This document shows, one piece after another, positions 4,669 through 23,428 of a stretch of DNA of 26,831 nt. The DNA is taken from the IMG/VR virus record IMGVR_UViG_3300048578_000127, positions 1-26,831 of that record; one strand, written 5' to 3'. Under the pieces are notes generated by a model. The model searched no databases and was not told the origin of the DNA. It worked only from the letters and a program-made list of their open reading frames with translations. The position numbers and the translations under genes were made by a program. The number at the start of each line of letters is the position of its first letter. The first letter of the stretch is position 1. The stretch is from a virus. Its lineage: Duplodnaviria > Caudoviricetes.

Positions 4669-5100
4669 ATGTATGCCTTCGTTCCGAAGATAGCCGCTCA
4701 GTCCGCCGCGAAACGCCGAGCCGCGACTTCTCCGGCGCGCCGCGGCCGCGCACCGGCTTGCAAGGACCTGGTGTCGATCCTGACCGCGCTCGGCACGGGT
4801 GCTCTTGCGGCCGGCGGCATCGCGGGTGTGATCGCGGCCGTCGGATACGGCGCCGGTCTCACGGCAGATGCTTACAACGCTGTCGTCGCCTGGCTTTACG
4901 ACGAGCGCTCCGCCATCGAAAGCCGCCTGTCGGATCTCTACCTCCGCTACGGCGAAATCGAGCTCGATCTCCGGGACGGCGCCGACCCGGCGCTCGAGCA
5001 GGAGCTGCAGGACATCAAGACGGAAATCGCCGATCTCGAGGAGCGCCTCGGTCAGATCGCGCAGGCCGAATCCGAAGCTGCCTCCGCTGTCGCCGCCTGA
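4669..5100 (+). CDS. Unknown head-region protein: basic leader, Gly/Ala hydrophobic segment, acidic coiled coil
   Basis: AAGGAG SD; TGATG coupling to portal; GC-rich third codon positions. Confidence 0.8.
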   Translation: MYAFVPKIAAQSAAKRRAATSPARRGRAPACKDLVSILTALGTGALAAGGIAGVIAAVGYGAGLTADAYNAVVAWLYDERSAIESRLSDLYLRYGEIELDLRDGADPALEQELQDIKTEIADLEERLGQIAQAESEAASAVAA

Positions 5101-6503
5101 TGCCGCAAGCGACCACACCTACGCTGCTCGAGCAGGCGAGCACGCCCTGGTTCGCGCCCGGTGACGCCATCGGCGTCGCGGACTACGGACCGGGCGAATC
5201 CAAGATGTTCACGGCCGAGGAGGAGGAGATTCTGCTCGGCGGCAATTCCGGGATCACCAAGTCCGGCCAATGGATCGGGCCGGAGCAGGCGCTCCGCATC
5301 TCGACGGCCTACGCCTGCCGGCGTGTGATCAGCGAGGACATCGCCAAGATGGCCCGCCGCGTCGTGCGCGTCACCTACGACGAACGGGGCCGCGAGCGCA
5401 CCGCCGTGGTCCACGATCACCCTGTGCACGACTTGCTCACCGTGCGCCCGAACGACTGGATGACGCCGTTCGAATTCGTGCAGTACATGGTGGCCATCTC
5501 CACCTTCCACGAGGCGGCCTACGCGCTCATCCAGCGAGACCGCTTCGGCAATTTGACCGAGCTGCTGCCCCTGCTGCCGGGCACCTGCGCGCCGGAGGTC
5601 GATCCCCGCTGGGATGTCTCCTATCGCGTCACCGGCTACGGCATGAACCTGCTGTTACAGCCCGGCGAGATCTTCGTGCTGCGCGGGCCGATGGCGGACC
5701 CCTGGCACGGGCATAACACCATCGCGCTCGCCAAGGAGGCGGTCGGCCTCGCAGCCGCCATCGAGGCGAGCCAGGCGCGCTTCCACGCCAACGACCTCCG
5801 CCCGTCCGGCGTGCTCTCGTCGGCGAAAACGATCGAGCAGCCCATGCGCGAGAAGATCCGCCAGGCTTGGCAGGAGGCCTACGGGCCAGGCGGCAAGGGC
5901 GGCATCGCCATTCTCGATGCGGAGTTCAAGTTCGACGCGATGACCGTCGAGGGCGCGAAGCAGGAGGTGATCGAGAACCGCAAGTTCCAGGTGTCCGACA
6001 CCTGCCGCTTCTTCCGCGTGTTCCCGCAGATCATCGGCCACAACGACGGCAGCCAGGCCTACGCCTCGGTCGAGAATATGTTCACGGCTCACGGCAGCCA
6101 TTGCCTGCAGCCGTGGGCCGAGCGCTTCGAGGAGGCGGCCACGCTCTCGATGCTGTCGGAGCAGGAGATCCGGCAGGGCCTCCGCGTCGATCTCGACATG
6201 GACGCCGTCGTGCGCGGCACCACCTCGGATCGCGTGAAGATCTACAAGGACGCCGTCACCATCTACATGACGCCGAACGAGATCCGGGTGCGCGAAGGGC
6301 TCGACCCCATCGACGACCCCGCCATGGACCGCGTGCAGCTCCCCGCCAACAACACCGGCCTCAAGCCCGCTCTCGGCGGGCCGGTCGACGGCGGCGCCCT
6401 CGATCCCGAGCCCGACAAACCGCGTCTTCCTCCGCCCGCGCCGCGCAAGCCGCCGGTGTGGGAGGACGAGGATCAGCGCTTCCGTCCCAACCGCGCGAGG
6501 TAA
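5100..6503 (+). CDS. Phage portal protein, HK97 family
   Basis: ALRISTAYACRRVISEDIAK, LLTVRPNDWMT, RFFRVFP, MTPNEIRVREGLDP; start at ATG 5100 overlapping the upstream TGA. Confidence 0.95.
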   Translation: MPQATTPTLLEQASTPWFAPGDAIGVADYGPGESKMFTAEEEEILLGGNSGITKSGQWIGPEQALRISTAYACRRVISEDIAKMARRVVRVTYDERGRERTAVVHDHPVHDLLTVRPNDWMTPFEFVQYMVAISTFHEAAYALIQRDRFGNLTELLPLLPGTCAPEVDPRWDVSYRVTGYGMNLLLQPGEIFVLRGPMADPWHGHNTIALAKEAVGLAAAIEASQARFHANDLRPSGVLSSAKTIEQPMREKIRQAWQEAYGPGGKGGIAILDAEFKFDAMTVEGAKQEVIENRKFQVSDTCRFFRVFPQIIGHNDGSQAYASVENMFTAHGSHCLQPWAERFEEAATLSMLSEQEIRQGLRVDLDMDAVVRGTTSDRVKIYKDAVTIYMTPNEIRVREGLDPIDDPAMDRVQLPANNTGLKPALGGPVDGGALDPEPDKPRLPPPAPRKPPVWEDEDQRFRPNRAR

Positions 6504-6505
6504 CT

Positions 6506-6697
6506 ATGCACGACTATCTTCTCCAGTTCTTCGCCTACGAGCATCTGCCGCCGCACCTGCAGGCGATCAGTAAGCCGTTCGGCGACCTCGCGCACAAGAT
6601 TGCCGAGACGTTGCCGTCAAATCCCGAGCGAACCATGGCCTTGCGGAAGTTGCTCGAGGCCAAGGACTGCGCCGTTCGCGCTCATCTCTTCAAATAG
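6506..6697 (+). CDS. 63-aa helical-hairpin protein, Acb2/Tad1-hairpin-like
   Basis: GAGGT SD; MHDYLLQFFAYEHLPPHLQAISKPFGDLA...PSNPERTMALRKLLEAKDCAVRA. CDS well supported; family call from remembered motif similarity. Confidence 0.7.
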   Translation: MHDYLLQFFAYEHLPPHLQAISKPFGDLAHKIAETLPSNPERTMALRKLLEAKDCAVRAHLFK

Positions 6698-6702
6698 CCG
6701 CC

Positions 6703-6939
6703 ATGCACAGCGTTTCCCACACCGCCCGCGCCTTTGCGCCGACGCTCGTCACTACGCAGGCCATCCTCGCCAACGGCCCGACCGTCGAGGATCTGGAGCG
6801 GCTGGCCGGCGATCTCGACCGGTTCGGCGCCGATCTCCTCGCCGCTGCCGACGCGACCGAGGCCGATCTGCCGGAGCCGTTGGTCGCCTCGCTCGAAACC
6901 GCCGTCGGCGCCGTGCAATCCGCGTTGAACCCGCACTGA
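6703..6939 (+). CDS. 78-aa acidic helical hypothetical protein
   Basis: Fills the gap between neighbours; GC-rich third codon positions. Confidence 0.65.
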   Translation: MHSVSHTARAFAPTLVTTQAILANGPTVEDLERLAGDLDRFGADLLAAADATEADLPEPLVASLETAVGAVQSALNPH

Positions 6940-6961
6940 ACCCCAACATCCGGAGACGTCC

Positions 6962-8503
6962 ATGTCCTACCGCATGCTCGGCGCTCGCGCCGCCGCAACC
7001 AAGCTCGCGCGCCGTTTTTCCCGCCGTGACGACATCGCCCTCGTCGATCCGATGACGACGACCGCCGTCCCGGAGGCGGTGGTCGAGACGGTCGTGAGCG
7101 ACGTCGTACCGGTCGATCCGCTGCCCAAGACCTACCGTGCCACCGTCACCCGCACCGTGACGCAGACGGCCGTGGTGGAGTTCACGGCGCCGGAGGGCAC
7201 CGATTCCTACACCATGGCGCAGGGTTTGCTCGAGAGCATCCCGGCCGAGCATTGGGTGACGCAGCCCGCCGACTCCTGGGGCTACATCGACCACATCGAG
7301 GAGGTCGGCCCCGCCGCGGCTGGCGACGTCGCAGACCCGCTCGACGCGCCGTCCGTGCTCTCGCGCCGTTACCGTCGCAAGTCGGATGCGGGAGCCGCGC
7401 GGGCCTTCCTCGATACGCTCGGGGACGCGACCATCGTGCAGGAAGCCGCGAACTTCGGCGGCGTGTCTGCGTACATCGACGACCTCGGAGACATCGTGAT
7501 CGTCGACGCCGCCGGTGGCGAGCGCCTGCTGACCGACGACGAGGTCATCACCCTGGCCCTGTCCTGCGGGTGGCAGGCTGAAGGCCAGGAAACCGACCTG
7601 ACCACCCTCTCGCGCCGCTACCGTCGCAAGGCCGCATCGGGGCAGTGGGCGGCCTACGATGAACAGGCGATCTGGGGGGTGGGTTACGACGCGCAGTCCG
7701 CGATTGCCGACGCCGCTACCAATTTCGGTCCCATCTCGCAGGAGGAGGTGGACGCCAACTTGGCCAGACTGATGACGGGCGAGATGTCTCAGGCCCTCGC
7801 CAACGCCGTCGCAGCGTCTGGGGGGAATGTCGGCTTCGAAATGCTTGCGAGCGGTTTGCTTGGTCTTGTCGGCGAGGAGGAAACGGTCGAGTTGGGTGAT
7901 GAGCCTCCGGTCGACGACGAAACCGACGATCTCGTGTCGAAAGCCACCCTTTCCCGCCGCTACGCCCGCAAGATGACGGGCAGCGAGGCGATCGACTGGA
8001 TCGACAGCGCCCAGCAGCAGGCCGACGCGGCTTACGAAGCCGGCGACCTCGCCACGCTGCAATCGCTGCTCGATCAGTCCTACGGGCTCTCGATCGACAC
8101 CGCCAATCCGGCCGACACCTGGGCCGCGGAGTTTCCCTCCGCGCTCGCCGATCTCCAGTTCCAGCTCAACGACAAGATCCGCAGCCTCGGCGAGATCGAG
8201 ACCGCGATCACGGAGGTGATCGACGCGCCCACGACGCTGGCACGCCGCGGCCGCCTCGCGCGCCGCTACGCCCGCAAATCCGCATTCGATGTCACCGTGG
8301 GCGGCACCTACATCGCCACCTACGAGGCGGCAACCGAGGACGAGGCGCTCGCGGCCTACCTTGCGGAGCAGGGCTTCGCCAGCGCCGAGGAAGCCGCGGC
8401 GGCGGCTGGCTACAGCGTCGAGGAGTATCTGGCCGACATCGTCGTGAGCGAGGTCCCGGCCGACGAGATCGCCGCCGACCCGGCTCTCGCTGCCGTCGCC
8501 TGA
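6962..8503 (+). CDS. Modular acidic protein with five L[SA]RR[YF]xR[KR] linkers (putative capsid-packaged polyprotein)
   Basis: 513-aa ORF with GGAG SD, located between portal and prohead protease; function inferred. Confidence 0.85.
   Translation: MSYRMLGARAAATKLARRFSRRDDIALVDPMTTTAVPEAVVETVVSDVVPVDPLPKTYRATVTRTVTQTAVVEFTAPEGTDSYTMAQGLLESIPAEHWVTQPADSWGYIDHIEEVGPAAAGDVADPLDAPSVLSRRYRRKSDAGAARAFLDTLGDATIVQEAANFGGVSAYIDDLGDIVIVDAAGGERLLTDDEVITLALSCGWQAEGQETDLTTLSRRYRRKAASGQWAAYDEQAIWGVGYDAQSAIADAATNFGPISQEEVDANLARLMTGEMSQALANAVAASGGNVGFEMLASGLLGLVGEEETVELGDEPPVDDETDDLVSKATLSRRYARKMTGSEAIDWIDSAQQQADAAYEAGDLATLQSLLDQSYGLSIDTANPADTWAAEFPSALADLQFQLNDKIRSLGEIETAITEVIDAPTTLARRGRLARRYARKSAFDVTVGGTYIATYEAATEDEALAAYLAEQGFASAEEAAAAAGYSVEEYLADIVVSEVPADEIAADPALAAVA
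7004..8278 (+). repeat. Five dispersed 24-nt repeats encoding the basic linker (7004-7027, 7358-7381, 7607-7630, 7949-7972, 8255-8278)
   Basis: For example CTCTCGCGCCGTTACCGTCGCAAG vs CTCTCGCGCCGCTACCGTCGCAAG; peptides LARRFSRR, LSRRYRRK, LSRRYRRK, LSRRYARK, LARRYARK. Confidence 0.9.
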
Positions 8504-8531
8504 TCCCGCACCCGCCGACCGCGAGGTTTCC

Positions 8532-9206
8532 ATGCTCACCGCCGCCTTGAAATCAGCCCCGGTGCCCGCACCGGAGCTCAAGCACCTGCGCCCCATCCGC
8601 TTCAAGGCGCAGGCGGTGTCGGAAGCCGGCACCTTCGAGGGCTACGGCAACGTGTTCGGCGTCGTCGACAGCTACGGCGACATTGTGATGCCCGGTGCGT
8701 TCTCGGCGTCGCTCGCCGACTACGCCGCGCAGGGCACGTTGCCGAAGCTGCTCCTGCAGCACGATCCCGCGGCGCCGATCGGCGTGTGGACCGAGATGCG
8801 GGAGGACAGCCACGGCCTCTACTGCAAGGGCCAGCTCAATCTCGACGTCGAGCGCGCGCGGGAGACGCTGAGCCTCATGCGGCAGGGTGCGCTCGACGGG
8901 CTCTCGATCGGCGGCGATCCCGTCGACACCCAGAAAGTCTACGTGGACGCTCTCGCCGACCACGGCATCGTGCTGCAGCCGGAGGAGCTGGAGCTCGGAG
9001 GCCAGCGCCGCCTCGTCTACGGCTGGGATCTCTGGGAGGTGTCCGTCGTGACCTTTCCCGCCTGCAAGCCCTCGCTCATCGACACGGAGACCGTGAAGCG
9101 CCGGCCGCACGCGCACACGTCGCGCCGTCACGCGTCACTTGTCGAGCTCGATCGCCTCGCCCGCGCCGTGGCGCGCCGCGGCCGGCTTCTCGCCGCACTT
9201 CGTTAG
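8532..9206 (+). CDS. Prohead (capsid maturation) protease, HK97 family
   Basis: FEGYGNVFGVVDSYGDIVMPGAF, LLLQHD, GLSIG, LWEVSVVTFPA. Confidence 0.95.
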   Translation: MLTAALKSAPVPAPELKHLRPIRFKAQAVSEAGTFEGYGNVFGVVDSYGDIVMPGAFSASLADYAAQGTLPKLLLQHDPAAPIGVWTEMREDSHGLYCKGQLNLDVERARETLSLMRQGALDGLSIGGDPVDTQKVYVDALADHGIVLQPEELELGGQRRLVYGWDLWEVSVVTFPACKPSLIDTETVKRRPHAHTSRRHASLVELDRLARAVARRGRLLAALR

Positions 9207-9248
9207 TCCTGCGTCCCAACTCTCTCACCCCAACAACCGGAGCTACCC

Positions 9249-10730
9249 ATGAAACCCAACGAGACGTTGGCGCAGGACCGTGTGCGCCATGACGAGACCG
9301 CGCCCGAGATCAAGGCGGGCGGGCCGCGCCGCATCGCGGCCCCGGCCGTGCACACCCGCCGCGCCGACCCCGTCGCCGCGCTCACGCGCACCATCGAGAC
9401 CCAGAACCGCCGCCTCGAGGTGAAGATGGTCTCGCGCACGGAAGCCGCCCGCCGTCTCGCAGCCGCCAAGGCGAACGCGACGCATCATCTGCGGGCCACG
9501 GTGGACCAGCGCAACGGGGCCGCCCGTAAGGGCCGCGCCGATCCGCTGCTCGATCAGACCATCAACCGCATCAACCGCCACATCGACCGCGTGGAGGCGG
9601 ACGAGCGGCGCGACCTGCAGACGCAGCTCGCGGCCGAGAAGGCGCGCACGCGCCAGCTCGAGACCAAGCTGCGCCGTCCGATGATCCAGCCGCCCGCGCG
9701 CCGGGCGAGCCTGTCTCAGCGGAACCAGGCGTTTGCGCTCTACCGCAAGGCCTCTCTCGCCTACCTCCGCACCGGTCAGGAAACCTTCGGCGGTGTCTCG
9801 CTGCGCGAGCTCGAGAAGAAGGCCGGCATGCATTCGGGCAGCAACCCGGATGGCGGTTTCTTCGTGCATCCCGAGTTAGACACCGGACCGCTGGAAGGGC
9901 TCCTCAGCAACGCCGTCGTGATGCGTCAGGTGGCGACGGTGCAGTCCATCTCCGGGCCGTCGTTCAAGAAGCCCGTCAACCTCCGCGGCGCGACGGTCGA
10001 GTGGGTGGGAGAGCGCCAGAACCCGCCCGACACGAACACGCCTGACATCGCCGAGATCGACGTTCCCGCCATGGAGATGGCAGCGAACGTGCTGGCCTCC
10101 CAGACGCTGATCGAGGATTCCTCGCTCGACATCGAGAGCTTCCTCGCGGAGGAGGTGCTCGACACCTTCGGCCAGGAAGAGGAGCGGGTCTTCTCCTCCG
10201 GTAACGGTGTCAACAAGCCGAGGGGGCTCTGGGCCTACGATATGGTGGCGAACGACAGCTGGGCCTGGGAGAAATTCGGCTTTACGCTCAGCGGCAAGAA
10301 CGGCGGCTTCCCCGATCCGGGCGCGGCCGTCAATCAGGCTGACCCTCTCTGGACGCTCATCTACTCGCTGAAGCCCGCTTACCGGAACTCGGCGAAATTC
10401 ATGATGAACTCGGGTCTCGTCGGCCGTTGCCGTCAGCTGAAAGACGGCGAGGGGCGCTGGATCTGGGCTGATGCCCGCGACAGCAATCCGGCTCAGCTCT
10501 GCGGGTATGAGGTTGTGGTCAACGAGCAGGCGCCCAACGGAGACGCGGACGCCTTCCCGATCGCATTCGGGGACTTCGCGCGCACCTACCTCATCGTCGA
10601 TCGCGTCGGCGTCACTGTGCTCCGCGATCCTTACACGCGCACCCCCTACATCCGCTTCTACACGCGCAAGCGGGTCGGCGGTGGCGTGAAGAACTTCGAG
10701 GCGACCAAGTTCCTCAAGTTCGCGCAGTAG
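9249..10730 (+). CDS. Major capsid protein, HK97 fold, with an ~191-aa N-terminal delta (scaffold) domain
   Basis: EKKAG..GSNPDGGFFV, GNGVNKPRG, LKDGEGRWIW, IAFGDF, LRDPYT, RVGGGV. Confidence 0.96.
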   Translation: MKPNETLAQDRVRHDETAPEIKAGGPRRIAAPAVHTRRADPVAALTRTIETQNRRLEVKMVSRTEAARRLAAAKANATHHLRATVDQRNGAARKGRADPLLDQTINRINRHIDRVEADERRDLQTQLAAEKARTRQLETKLRRPMIQPPARRASLSQRNQAFALYRKASLAYLRTGQETFGGVSLRELEKKAGMHSGSNPDGGFFVHPELDTGPLEGLLSNAVVMRQVATVQSISGPSFKKPVNLRGATVEWVGERQNPPDTNTPDIAEIDVPAMEMAANVLASQTLIEDSSLDIESFLAEEVLDTFGQEEERVFSSGNGVNKPRGLWAYDMVANDSWAWEKFGFTLSGKNGGFPDPGAAVNQADPLWTLIYSLKPAYRNSAKFMMNSGLVGRCRQLKDGEGRWIWADARDSNPAQLCGYEVVVNEQAPNGDADAFPIAFGDFARTYLIVDRVGVTVLRDPYTRTPYIRFYTRKRVGGGVKNFEATKFLKFAQ

Positions 10731-14348: not shown

Positions 14349-14828
14349 ATGTACGATCAGGGGGAGTTGGCGCGCGGTGCAACGCTCGTGGTCTGCGGTC
14401 GAGAGTATGCGTTCGACCGCTCGCTCGACATGCTGCGCCGCGCGGAGGGCGCGATCGGCGCCGTCGCGCCGTTCGCGCAGCGTCTCGACGTTGGCGCCGC
14501 AACGTCGGACGAGATCGTTCGTGTCTACGTGGCGTTGCTGCGCGACCGGGCCGGGGCGCCTCAGCGCGAGATCCTCGATGCGTGGGTTTGGGAGGAGGGC
14601 GTGCGGGCGCACCAAGCCCTCGCCGTTTACCTCTATTCCCTCACCATGGGCTCGAAGGAGCTTCGGCGCGTGCTCGATGAGCGGCGTGTTGATGAGGAGC
14701 CGGCGCGGGACGACGCACGCGGCCCTTTTGCAAAGACGGCTGGGCAGACTGGGATTACATCCTGGGCCTCGGGCGGGTCCTTGGGTGGACGCCCGCCCAG
14801 CTTTGGTGCACCTCGTTCTACGAGATGA
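14349..14828 (+). CDS. Tail assembly chaperone (gpG-like)
   Basis: Between tube and tape measure genes; contains an in-frame slippery heptamer. Confidence 0.8.
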   Translation: MYDQGELARGATLVVCGREYAFDRSLDMLRRAEGAIGAVAPFAQRLDVGAATSDEIVRVYVALLRDRAGAPQREILDAWVWEEGVRAHQALAVYLYSLTMGSKELRRVLDERRVDEEPARDDARGPFAKTAGQTGITSWASGGSLGGRPPSFGAPRSTR

Positions 14829-14929
14829 CGGCAATGCTGGCGGCCGATATTGCACGCCTGCCGAAGCCGCCCTCCGAGCCGAGCGAAGACGACATGTGGG
14901 CATTCCTCGATCGCCTGCCGGAGGCCTGA
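14723..14929 (+). CDS. -1 frameshift extension of the tail assembly chaperone (gpGT-like)
   Basis: C CCT TTT at 14723-14729. The -1 frame reads PFCKDGWADWDYILGLGRVLGWTPAQLWCTSFYEM...FLDRLPEA*, with the LGWTPxxxW motif of gpT-type extensions. Confidence 0.85.
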   Translation, partial: PFCKDGWADWDYILGLGRVLGWTPAQLWCTSFYEMTAMLAADIARLPKPPSEPSEDDMWAFLDRLPEA

Positions 14930-14932
14930 CGC

Positions 14933-15157
14933 ATGCCTGAAGGGTTCAACAGTAGCTTGGTCGACAGGGCTCTCGCGGAAGAACTTGCGTGCTCCTTTGC
15001 CTGGATCACTCGGGATTTCCCATTCCCACCTTCTCGGGACGACATTCTTGTATGGATTTACGAGCATGGCGTGCGCAGAGAAGGATTGATGCAGCACCTC
15101 ATGGTCAAGTTGACCGAGTTTGTCGGTGTCGAGTTGAAGGAGGTCCCTCGTGCCTGA
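14933..15157 (+). CDS. 74-aa protein resembling the core of the upstream tail chaperone
   Basis: Ungapped similarity to 14349..14828; lower GC; overlaps the tape measure start. Confidence 0.6.
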   Translation: MPEGFNSSLVDRALAEELACSFAWITRDFPFPPSRDDILVWIYEHGVRREGLMQHLMVKLTEFVGVELKEVPRA

Positions 15158-20836: not shown

Positions 20837-23428
20837 ATGACTGAACTCGCGTCGTACATCTGGGGCGACTACAACACCGATCGCATCCCGAGCTCCGGAT
20901 TCAAGGAGCCGAAAAAGCGCCTGATCCGCGAGTGGGGCACGTGGATCGAAGGGGCGCTGCTCGGCACCAGCGTTGTCGGGCGCGTGATCCATGCGACGCG
21001 CGCGAGCCTGTACGCCGACCTCGCACACGCGGCCAACACGATGGCGTGGGTCTGGAACGACCCCACGACGGCCTACAACGGGATCTACGCGAAGGTTGGC
21101 GCCTCGGGGTCCGGCTCCTGGACGCGCCTCACCGACCTTCCGTACAGTTTCCTGGCCGCGCAGAACGACGGCGATGGGACCGCGAATGCCATCGAGGCCA
21201 CGACGCCGTCTCCCATTCCGGACGGCAACGGCCGCACTCTGATCACGCTGCCGATCTTCGCCACCAACACCAACACGCCCGTGACGGTGGAGTTCAACGA
21301 GGACGGTTCTCCGCTCACCATCAAGACAAGCGCGGGTAACGATCCGGTTCCGGGCGGGCTCGTCGCCGGCATGATCGTGGCGGGCTGGAAGGACGGCAGC
21401 ACGTTCCGCATGTTGTCGGACCAGGCCAGCGCGGCCATTCAGGCGGCGGCCGAGGACGCGGCCGACCGGGCAGAGGCGGCTGCCGTCGGCATCGCAATCA
21501 CGACATGCGCCACCCGCACCGAATTGAAGGCGCTCGACCCATCGCTCCGCAAGCTGGCCGTGCTGCGCGAGGCCGGCCGCGAGGGAACCTGGGTCTGGCG
21601 CACGGGCGACTACTCGGCGCAGATCGCGGCCGACACGGCCGAAGGCCTCTACCTCAAGGCGGACAGCGTGGCCGCGTCCGCCGGTGCGTGGGTGCGCGTT
21701 TATGACGGGTCCGTACTCCCGACGTGGTTTGGCGCAACAGCAAACGCAGGTAGTAGTCAACACACCGCATTGCAGGCGTGGATTGATAGCGGTGCAGAGG
21801 ATTTGTACCTGCCTCCTGGCATTTGGCGCGCGGACAGTACGCTAACGTGTGGTCACAACGTCAAGCTGCACGGACCGGGTGTGCTGGATTTTGGCTACGG
21901 CACCGGGCAGTTGCTCGTCACAGGAGCGGGGCTATCGGCGCTCGATCCACTCAGCGCAAACGTGTCTCGTGGCGGGAGAGCGTTGTCGTGGTCGTCCAGT
22001 CAGGGGCTGGCCGCTCGCGATATTGTCGTGCTCTACAATCCTACTGACTACTCGTGGGGGTCGCGGCGTACCTACTACCGAGACGGCGCGGCTTTTAGGG
22101 TCCACTCCATGAGCGGCAACACGGCCAACATCTACGGCCAAGCCGTGGACCCTTACGTAGCGGCGTCTTTCGCCTGCTACAAAATGAGCACTGTGCGGGC
22201 GACGATCGACATCGGAGGATTTGTCGCAGCCGGTTCTGGCAGCGTTCCGCCGCTCTATCTCAAATGGTGTGCGGATAGCCGCGTCAACCGGCTGCGGGGT
22301 CACGGCGGGCTCTATACCATTTGCGAAATTGACCAGTGCTTTGGCGTTACAGTAGACCTCGCGGCCCCTATTAATGCGAGCCCTGCTGCCGGTGACGAGT
22401 ACGGAGTGATCGTCTCTAACTCAACGCACGTGCATTTCGATGGCGACGCGTCTATGGCCACGCGGCACGCCATCGCGCTGGGCGGTCGAGACAATGCCGG
22501 AGCTATCCCGTGCCGGTATATCACTGTCTCCGGTGTCACCCTATGCAACGGCGCGGACGGTGACGATGTGGGCGCGGCCGACGCTCACGGCAATTGCGAT
22601 TTTGTGACCTACGACAACTGCACGATGTTGAGCGGTGCCACGGTTGGAGGCCGCAACGGGGCGCTGCGAAACTGCACCATATTCGGCATGGACAGCGCGC
22701 ACGGCGATTGCATTAACAGCGCTGAGTTTGTCGGCAGCGGCACGTTCACGCTGGAAAATTGCACCCTAATCAGCGAGGGAAACGGCGCGTCGGTCGGCTA
22801 CATCAACATCGTCCCGCTCGGACCAAGCGGTGCTGGCTCCCCTGCTCAAACGTCGATGCGGGGCGATCTCAACGTCGTGATCCGCAATCTGACGGTGCGG
22901 ACACCGAATGCGATCTCAACCAGCAAGCTGCTCACGCTGCGACCGGCAAACGCAGACTACAAAACCAACCTCACCATGGACGGGGTTGTGTGGATTGCGC
23001 CTGCTGGGCTCGCGTTTGTCTATGCTGAGGATACGACGCTCTCGGCTATGCTCTCAGACGGGTTGAGCGTGGACAACGTGCAGGGGCCGTCTGGCACGTA
23101 TCTCATCTACCCGACTAGCGACATTGCGGCGGTCCCGACCCGGGAAATGCGTCAGTGTGGGCGCGCATCCGTCACAACGGCAGCCGCAACATCGGTCATC
23201 GCTAGCCCCGTCTCGTATCGCTACCCCTACTCGCGTGCGCCGTCTGGCCAGTGCGCGATCTCGCTGACTGACGGGAGCGCGTCGAGCCAGACCGCAGGGC
23301 AAAACGCGATCCCGAAATTGTACGCCATCTCCAACACGCAGATCAGACCGGCAATGTTGGCATCCGCTAATTTCACGGCATCAGTCGCTGTGGATTTGCA
23401 TTGGAGTGCTGAGGTACGCGGGTTCTAG
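20837..23428 (+). CDS. Tailspike / receptor-binding protein with a pectate-lyase-like beta-helix (putative depolymerase)
   Basis: N-terminal anchor domain, then WFGATANAG..TALQAWID...LYLPPGIW beta-helix cap and Asn/Cys-rich beta rungs. Confidence 0.82.
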   Translation: MTELASYIWGDYNTDRIPSSGFKEPKKRLIREWGTWIEGALLGTSVVGRVIHATRASLYADLAHAANTMAWVWNDPTTAYNGIYAKVGASGSGSWTRLTDLPYSFLAAQNDGDGTANAIEATTPSPIPDGNGRTLITLPIFATNTNTPVTVEFNEDGSPLTIKTSAGNDPVPGGLVAGMIVAGWKDGSTFRMLSDQASAAIQAAAEDAADRAEAAAVGIAITTCATRTELKALDPSLRKLAVLREAGREGTWVWRTGDYSAQIAADTAEGLYLKADSVAASAGAWVRVYDGSVLPTWFGATANAGSSQHTALQAWIDSGAEDLYLPPGIWRADSTLTCGHNVKLHGPGVLDFGYGTGQLLVTGAGLSALDPLSANVSRGGRALSWSSSQGLAARDIVVLYNPTDYSWGSRRTYYRDGAAFRVHSMSGNTANIYGQAVDPYVAASFACYKMSTVRATIDIGGFVAAGSGSVPPLYLKWCADSRVNRLRGHGGLYTICEIDQCFGVTVDLAAPINASPAAGDEYGVIVSNSTHVHFDGDASMATRHAIALGGRDNAGAIPCRYITVSGVTLCNGADGDDVGAADAHGNCDFVTYDNCTMLSGATVGGRNGALRNCTIFGMDSAHGDCINSAEFVGSGTFTLENCTLISEGNGASVGYINIVPLGPSGAGSPAQTSMRGDLNVVIRNLTVRTPNAISTSKLLTLRPANADYKTNLTMDGVVWIAPAGLAFVYAEDTTLSAMLSDGLSVDNVQGPSGTYLIYPTSDIAAVPTREMRQCGRASVTTAAATSVIASPVSYRYPYSRAPSGQCAISLTDGSASSQTAGQNAIPKLYAISNTQIRPAMLASANFTASVAVDLHWSAEVRGF

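Follow-up and report, generated by a model that had tools for sequence, protein, structure and literature searches.

What does the gene directly ahead of the prohead protease gene in a tailed-phage head operon encode, and what becomes of its product? The question is raised by the IMG/VR virus record IMGVR_UViG_3300048578_000127 (Duplodnaviria; Caudoviricetes), analysed from position 1 to 26,831; this whole stretch of 26,831 nucleotides (nt) is called the window. The gene codes for the polyprotein P0001, a basic leader followed by five acidic modules, A to E, which are joined by basic linkers (Table 1). The original prediction, made from the letters alone, had read it as a cassette of effectors that is loaded into the head, cut apart during maturation and injected with the DNA. 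The modular build, the shuffling, the protease-like sites and the loss of Lys were found; packaging, cutting, ejection and an action against host defences stay proposals. We regard it as rather probable that a shuffled cassette of acidic domains docks in the prohead, is cut after the last Lys of its linkers and leaves folded, Lys-poor pieces in the head.

Composition of the cassette gene

The basic motifs lie where they had been claimed, LARRFSRR at amino acids (aa) 15-22, LSRRYRRK at 133-140 and 216-223, LSRRYARK at 330-337 and LARRGRLARRYARK at 426-439, and they delimit modules of 110, 75, 106, 88 and 74 aa. The composition also agreed with the claims: the last module has 15 Asp or Glu and neither Lys nor Arg, and four of the eight Lys residues of the protein end a motif, followed by Ser, Ala, Met and Ser. 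One refinement concerns the first motif, which ends RR/DD (a slash marks a putative cut) and lacks a terminal Lys. Twenty-five of the 37 Lys and Arg residues fall within the 46 motif residues; the motif pattern, itself derived from the same sequence, gave not one match in 10,000 shuffles. On the DNA level the four internal linkers form a 29-nt repeat with 72-86 % identity to the reference copy, in which the codons vary and the encoded peptide is retained. The predicted cut pieces have masses of 7.4-12.7 kDa and isoelectric points of 4.0-4.3, with module net charges from -7 to -15. A gap of 28 nt separates it from the S78 protease gene that follows, where "it" is the cassette gene, in agreement with the adjacency that had been noted.

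The modules are mutually dissimilar, as had been stated: BLASTP gave no match between any two of the five, and a profile comparison of A with E had a probability of 0.2 %. A tandem repeat of one fold was rejected on these grounds. An assembly artefact was rejected as well, because a contig from a separate public run (X2) spans 6952-9400 without a gap, at 29 differences, and homologues exist. Pfam, PHROGs and NCBIfam yielded no meaningful family for P0001, for its modules or for the relatives scanned (up to 72). In structure models (predicted template modelling scores 0.34 and 0.41) the modules fold separately, and the linker between D and E is helical.

Shuffling of modules among relatives

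A homologue search over 1.84 billion representatives gave 85 matches; P0072 and P0081, long repetitive proteins with chance matches, were left out of all counts. The 84 proteins (P0001 included) divide into 177 modules and 33 architecture strings, counts that are approximate because unsplit proteins led the automatic clustering to assign one or more other modules to cluster A. Forty-three proteins carry several modules, two to eight each, in open frames, and 39 of the 177 modules are partnerless. All 177 are net acidic, which is partly an effect of cutting at basic clusters. Seven near homologues have module A first in every case and differ in the remainder. Architectures include A-B'-B-D-E (P0002), A-E-x-D (P0003), A-E-E (P0004) and a chain of eight modules (P0010). 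The differences in module number and order at the linker support the predicted expandable, shuffled cassette; a family colinear over its whole length with a single fold, which would have spoken for the opposite, was not what we found, as modules are shuffled and some are free-standing.

Stand-alone homologues, for which the original prediction had suggested a search, were obtained for module C (12, of 80-97 aa), module E (four of 60-97 aa and two longer ones) and module A (about 14, of 89-144 aa). None were found for module B in the searches made, a result that shows no absence. Free-standing A proteins retain the basic leader and free-standing C and E proteins lack it: the start M-[YF]-x-hydrophobic was present in 39 of 66 A/E polyproteins or A-only proteins versus one of 18 free-standing C/E homologues. 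The leader, purely as a sequence pattern, also stands on single-module open reading frames (ORFs) of the window and of the related loci L100, L104, L107 and L117. We infer that modules C and E descend from ordinary small genes that a cassette headed by module A took up. For module C the capture is probably recent, which fits its lower GC content at third codon positions (GC3, 0.75 versus 0.87-0.92).

The interval between portal and protease was compared across eight related loci. A cassette lies behind the portal gene in five of them (L001, L100, L104, L105, L106), directly ahead of the protease gene in four of these five; the L001 locus stops inside the cassette gene. No cassette follows the portal in L107, L117 and L118, and L107 and L117 have single ORFs of leader and acidic body at other places in the head operon. 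Among 97 distant protease loci, many of them redundant, the portal abuts the protease in 84 of the 85 that include a portal gene. Loci for P0001, module A or module C were not found in viral and genome collections, and one was found in a metagenome. Module A had no match in 401 genomes from the order of a Hyphomicrobium genome, a sample without positive control, and P0010, P0054 and P0080 had none in 50,697 cultured phage genome records.

At several places among the head and connector genes, the relatives carry single ORFs that join an M-Y/F-A-L leader to a mostly Arg-ended basic stretch and an acidic body (Table 1). An acidic ORF of L105 (17489-17926), located between head-closure and neck genes, bears a C-terminal LSRR-type tag. 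In P0033 the final 75 aa match phage DNA primases at their C-terminal end (phrog_1156, E 1e-5); no other named domain turned up in the 72 scanned proteins. Further small acidic modules of no known family recur in P0009, P0013, P0051 (last), P0023 (first) and P0078 (middle), and one of them is common to three otherwise different cassettes.

Linkers, capsid sites and the fate of the chain

Among 137 non-terminal basic clusters (leaders included), 80 end in Lys and 57 in Arg, and the residue that follows is mostly A, D, M, E, S, G or T. The 27 proteins with at least two internal linkers comprise 19 with Lys ends throughout, three with Arg ends throughout and five mixed ones. The scaffold (delta) region of the major capsid protein ends LEKK/AG in the window and in L105 and LERK/AG in L106, and the internal linkers of these three are Lys-ended in 11 of 11 cases. 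In the capsids of L104 and L100, LETR/ aligns with EIK/ of the window and there is no Lys at the scaffold end; the linkers of these two loci end AVR/AM and DQR/AE, and L107 and L117 have VTR/AM. Linker ends match and co-vary with the putative capsid sites, both site sets being predicted and the co-variation comprising two or three lineages with non-independent points. This supports a protease-like site at the linker ends that tracks the sites of the capsid. The caveat attached to the original prediction, that the capsid sites look like E-x-K and that the motif may not serve cleavage, is softened by a last scaffold site of the form KK/A or RK/A.

Across the 28 cassette copies of module E (2,431 residues) Lys is absent, versus 6.5 % in four free-standing homologues, and the core of module C has none in 82 residues of the window versus 2.6 %, values that are open to the kinship of the copies, to host GC and to the manner of cutting modules. 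The acidity that had been taken as a sign of DNA mimicry is present; alone it is no proof of mimicry, because a loss of Lys would equally be expected if the modules must survive the protease. Survival of the protease may thus be an alternative reason for the charge.

In their long form the linkers have two halves, P-x-T-L-S-R-R-R-R-A-L followed by A-R-R-Y-A-R-K, and the first resembles the C-terminal tail of the neighbouring protease (ARAVARRGRLL in the window, AALSRRDRAL in L100, EALAHRGRAL in L105, AALLRRGRLL in L106). A linker profile of 12 columns was derived from 53 linkers, excluding the proteins of the window, L104, L105 and L106 and the near-identical P0002. By this profile the protease tail of the window ranks 6th of 6,354 positions, behind the cassette's own linkers only, and the best-scoring position falls within the last 30 residues in eight of eight proteases of the clade. 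Their scores were 10.1, 14.6, 11.5, 13.7 and 5.0 with a cassette present and 2.8-3.5 with the cassette absent; 59 control protease tails reached 7.6 at most, and four of the five cassette-bearing proteases scored at least 10. Against the likeness, 255 of 2,000 shuffles of the window tail and 120 of the L104 tail reach the observed score; for the tails of L100, L105 and L106 only 5-14 did. Eleven of the 43 multi-module proteins end in a bare first half with nothing behind it, which favours a docking role, because a cut at this terminal tag would release nothing. One half of the linker seems to serve docking and the other cutting. The HK97 protease is reportedly specific for Lys and has its capsid-targeting signal in the C-terminal part, as Duda et al. 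are said to have described in 2013. Prohead targeting by the C-terminal part is also proposed for gp245 of SPN3US in passages of PMC7411985.

In the mechanism that we favour, the basic leader and the LSRR-type linker halves would dock the chain in the prohead, as the protease tail is thought to do. The prohead protease would cut after R22, K140, K223, K337 and K439 into single domains, which would survive it through their loss of Lys and stay in the head as internal proteins. At least some modules may leave the head along with the DNA and counter the defences of the host; we put this last step, ejection and anti-defence action, forward tentatively.

Module B is the best candidate for such an action. 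Its predicted fold is closest to AcrIC4 (PDB 8DFO), an anti-CRISPR (clustered regularly interspaced short palindromic repeats) protein, over 55 of 57 residues with a root-mean-square deviation of 3.0. AcrIC4 is a small acidic domain, as is module B, and passages of bioRxiv 10.1101/2022.06.15.496202 describe how its negatively charged face blocks binding of the protospacer adjacent motif. AcrIC4 was not among the sequence matches of module B at E up to 10, with profiles of only 1-6 sequences and about 70 aa. PDB sequence searches with modules B, C and E and with P0010 gave chance matches only, Foldseek against PDB and BFVD returned nothing at E up to 0.001, and Atlas gave no usable match for module B. 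The wide VIA search of a C-D-E model was swamped by the long helix and barely probed C and E. Module A had no match to DpnD-PcfM (PF14207) above the Pfam cut-off; its Atlas score of 0.81 is a lead only. It appears doubtful that an HK97-type phage preloads swappable anti-defence mini-proteins, a true AcrIC4-type anti-CRISPR among them, which would protect before phage gene expression; the same doubt applies to the part of this reading in which the docking tail of the protease was copied into every linker of a small temperate phage.

The charge of the capsid scaffold allows another role. The delta region (9249-9821; about 191 aa, twice as long as in HK97) is net +19 with 31 Arg and is equally Arg-rich in six of six relatives compared. 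An accessory scaffold or assembly helper could neutralise it with the acidic modules, which, once cut free, would leave or stay inert and have no role in the next host. The opposite net charge of every module, the nearly constant presence of module A and the fact that unrelated modules are alike in size and charge only would suit such a helper. We consider it unlikely, however: in three of the eight related loci the delta is just as rich in Arg and this place holds no cassette, the modules are folded, conserve non-charged residues and have free-standing homologues, and a steady module turnover is unexpected for charge filler. Quite unlikely is a late polyprotein that is never packaged and acts in the producing cell, e.g., on defences that late proteins set off; any cutting would then fall to free protease or to host proteases. 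The virion location is a deduction, and anti-defence genes often sit among structural genes, but the leader common to unrelated ORFs of the head operon and the likeness of linker and protease tail would be left unexplained. We hold it very unlikely that the chain is packaged and left uncut, as one flexible polyvalent protein whose Arg-rich linkers bind DNA or the shell. The narrow linker ends (Lys or Arg, then a small, acidic or Met residue), the tracking of capsid sites by the last linker residue and the purging of Lys from module E argue for cutting, against protamine-like linkers, bare tags at C termini, the helical D-E linker and the virion RNA polymerase of N4, which is packaged without processing according to passages of PMC5512222. 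Near-neutral accretion, with small genes caught at the 29-nt repeat through recombination and a product without any role under selection, is hardly credible, since frames stay open over two to eight modules in 43 proteins, the linker peptide is kept despite codon variation and residues of module A are strongly conserved, although the portal-protease interval gains and loses genes even in near-identical strains.

Neighbouring genes and known systems

The window, one whole virus contig, carries an HK97-type morphogenesis operon of terminase, portal, two small ORFs, cassette, S78 protease, major capsid protein, connectors, siphophage-type tail genes and lysis genes. The nearest named relatives belong to the Hyphomicrobiaceae; public runs with at least half of the stretch come from wastewater, biofilter and activated sludge. 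The 143-aa ORF between terminase and portal is probably a single-module cargo of the same system. It has a hydrophobic Gly/Ala helix and an acidic tail and is, by eye, like modules in P0011, P0017 and P0033, a likeness which suggests that the same cargo occurs both alone and in cassettes. An acidic ORF similar in size to the 78-aa ORF lies ahead of the cassette in L001, L100, L104, L105 and L106. The 62-aa ORF directly after the portal gene (6509-6697) belongs to phrog_1761 and phrog_5120, families without assigned function, and is cleanly missing from contigs of runs X2 and X4. Just ahead of the cassette, positions 6911-6952 are replaced in X2 by 407 other bases, probably one further small gene. 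The portal-protease interval is a hot spot, because strain contigs lose the 62-aa ORF and carry this replacement. Farther downstream, a tailspike with pectin-lyase-like and immunoglobulin-like domains (20837-23428; GC partly lower) is likely a polysaccharide-degrading receptor-binding protein. The stretch 14349-15157, ahead of the tape measure gene, encodes a tail assembly chaperone and then an acidic ORF of 74 aa that begins at lower GC; this may be either a frameshift pair or an inserted gene.

Table 1. Features of the cassette gene, its neighbours in the window and leader-type ORFs of related loci
Feature	Position	Strand	Remarks
Second leader-bearing acidic ORF, terminase-portal interval	4669..5100	+	143 aa; linker profile score 8.2
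Portal protein	5100..6503	+	
Acidic ORF without leader	6703..6939	+	78 aa; BLAST match to L106 only, E 8e-5
Cassette polyprotein P0001	6962..8503	+	513 aa; leader and modules A-B-C-D-E
Basic leader	6962..7027	+	aa 1-22; net +7; ends RFSRR/DD; candidate capsid-targeting propeptide
Module A	7028..7357	+	aa 23-132; most widespread module; small beta-beta-alpha-beta fold
Linker	7358..7381	+	LSRRYRRK/S
Module B	7382..7606	+	aa 141-215; predicted fold closest to anti-CRISPR AcrIC4
Linker	7607..7630	+	LSRRYRRK/A
Module C	7631..7948	+	aa 224-329; 12 free-standing homologues without leader; GC3 0.75
Linker	7949..7972	+	LSRRYARK/M
Module D	7973..8236	+	aa 338-425; helical; first residue Met
Two-part linker	8237..8278	+	LARRGR-LARRYARK/S; LARRGR half matches protease tail ARRGRL
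Module E	8279..8500	+	aa 440-513; duplicated in relatives; free-standing homologues
HK97-type prohead protease (Peptidase_S78)	8532..9206	+	linker-like C-terminal tail ARAVARRGRLLA at 9159-9194
Major capsid protein (PF05065)	9249..10730	+	Arg-rich scaffold (delta) with putative cut site LEKK/AG
Leader-type single ORFs, L104	10436-10714, 15406-15783		
Leader-type single ORF, L100	2519-2797		
Leader-type single ORF, L107	4381-4707		
Leader-type single ORFs, L117	7385-7738, 7783-8097		

The novelty claimed for the architecture stands in part. The general idea is largely covered by polyvalent proteins and the internal proteins of T4; a cassette of mini-domains punctuated for the prohead protease was described in no title or abstract opening of a full-text literature search, with subscription papers and supplements outside its range. 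If the docked and cleaved cassette is real, HK97-type heads would have in the linker a portable 'load and cut' tag, and the 177 modules of the 84 proteins, none of them of a known family, would be candidate early effectors. The prevailing view is that anti-CRISPR synthesis begins only once the DNA is inside the cell, and an anti-CRISPR delivered by the virion would change the picture of first infections of immune cells. Even if only the role as assembly helper held, the cassette would be a new kind of internal head protein. Hden_2980, a relative in a cultured, harmless strain, makes packaging and cleavage directly testable.

The charge pattern of T4 is the reverse of the basic linkers and acidic cargo of the cassette, and no sequence likeness to T4 internal proteins was found. 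According to passages of PMC7411985, the latter lose a targeting propeptide to gp21 and are then ejected. The signals of T4 IPI-III and Alt and of P1 DarB are short N-terminal propeptides common to unrelated proteins, and T4 internal proteins combine a site fitting the head protease with variable cargo (passages of PMC7411985 and PMC9024508); the cassette has variable cargo as well, and its sites for the head protease are putative. Unlike T4, the window has an HK97-type head, an S78 protease, a delta scaffold and several cargos per chain. T4 gp21 cuts after Glu, whereas the cassette linkers end in Lys or Arg, the protease is a Peptidase_S78 and the capsid a PF05065 protein, so the cassette does not belong to the T4 type. 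HK97 itself, with the gp4 protease and the gp5 delta domain, shares the protease family and an N-terminal scaffold that is removed at maturation (passages of PMC9024508). The difference is that no cargo gene is known from the portal-protease interval of HK97, and that in the window the cargo linkers seem to contain copies of the protease tail.

For polyvalent proteins (Iyer et al. 2017), passages of PMC5512222 propose packaging, injection, mosaicism and proteolytic release and draw the analogy to polyproteins. These passages give 2-15 disparate mosaic domains per chain, a range that includes the 43 cassette proteins with two to eight modules, and a location in the portal-terminase head module or a conjugative transfer region, of which the cassette occupies the head module. 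They also describe large enzymatic, DNA-binding or LPD domains, often with an own metallopeptidase or MuF. The cassette differs in that all modules have 60-110 aa and no Pfam match, and that a repeated linker points to the prohead protease; MPTase, MuF, ART, PBECR and LPD domains were absent from P0001 and the scanned relatives in the Pfam, PHROGs and NCBIfam scans. The cassette would work like T4 internal proteins and polyvalent proteins and is a member of neither by protease type and domain content. The copy of the protease tail in the linker, the purging of Lys, the AcrIC4-like module and the cultured relative make it more than a further example of either.
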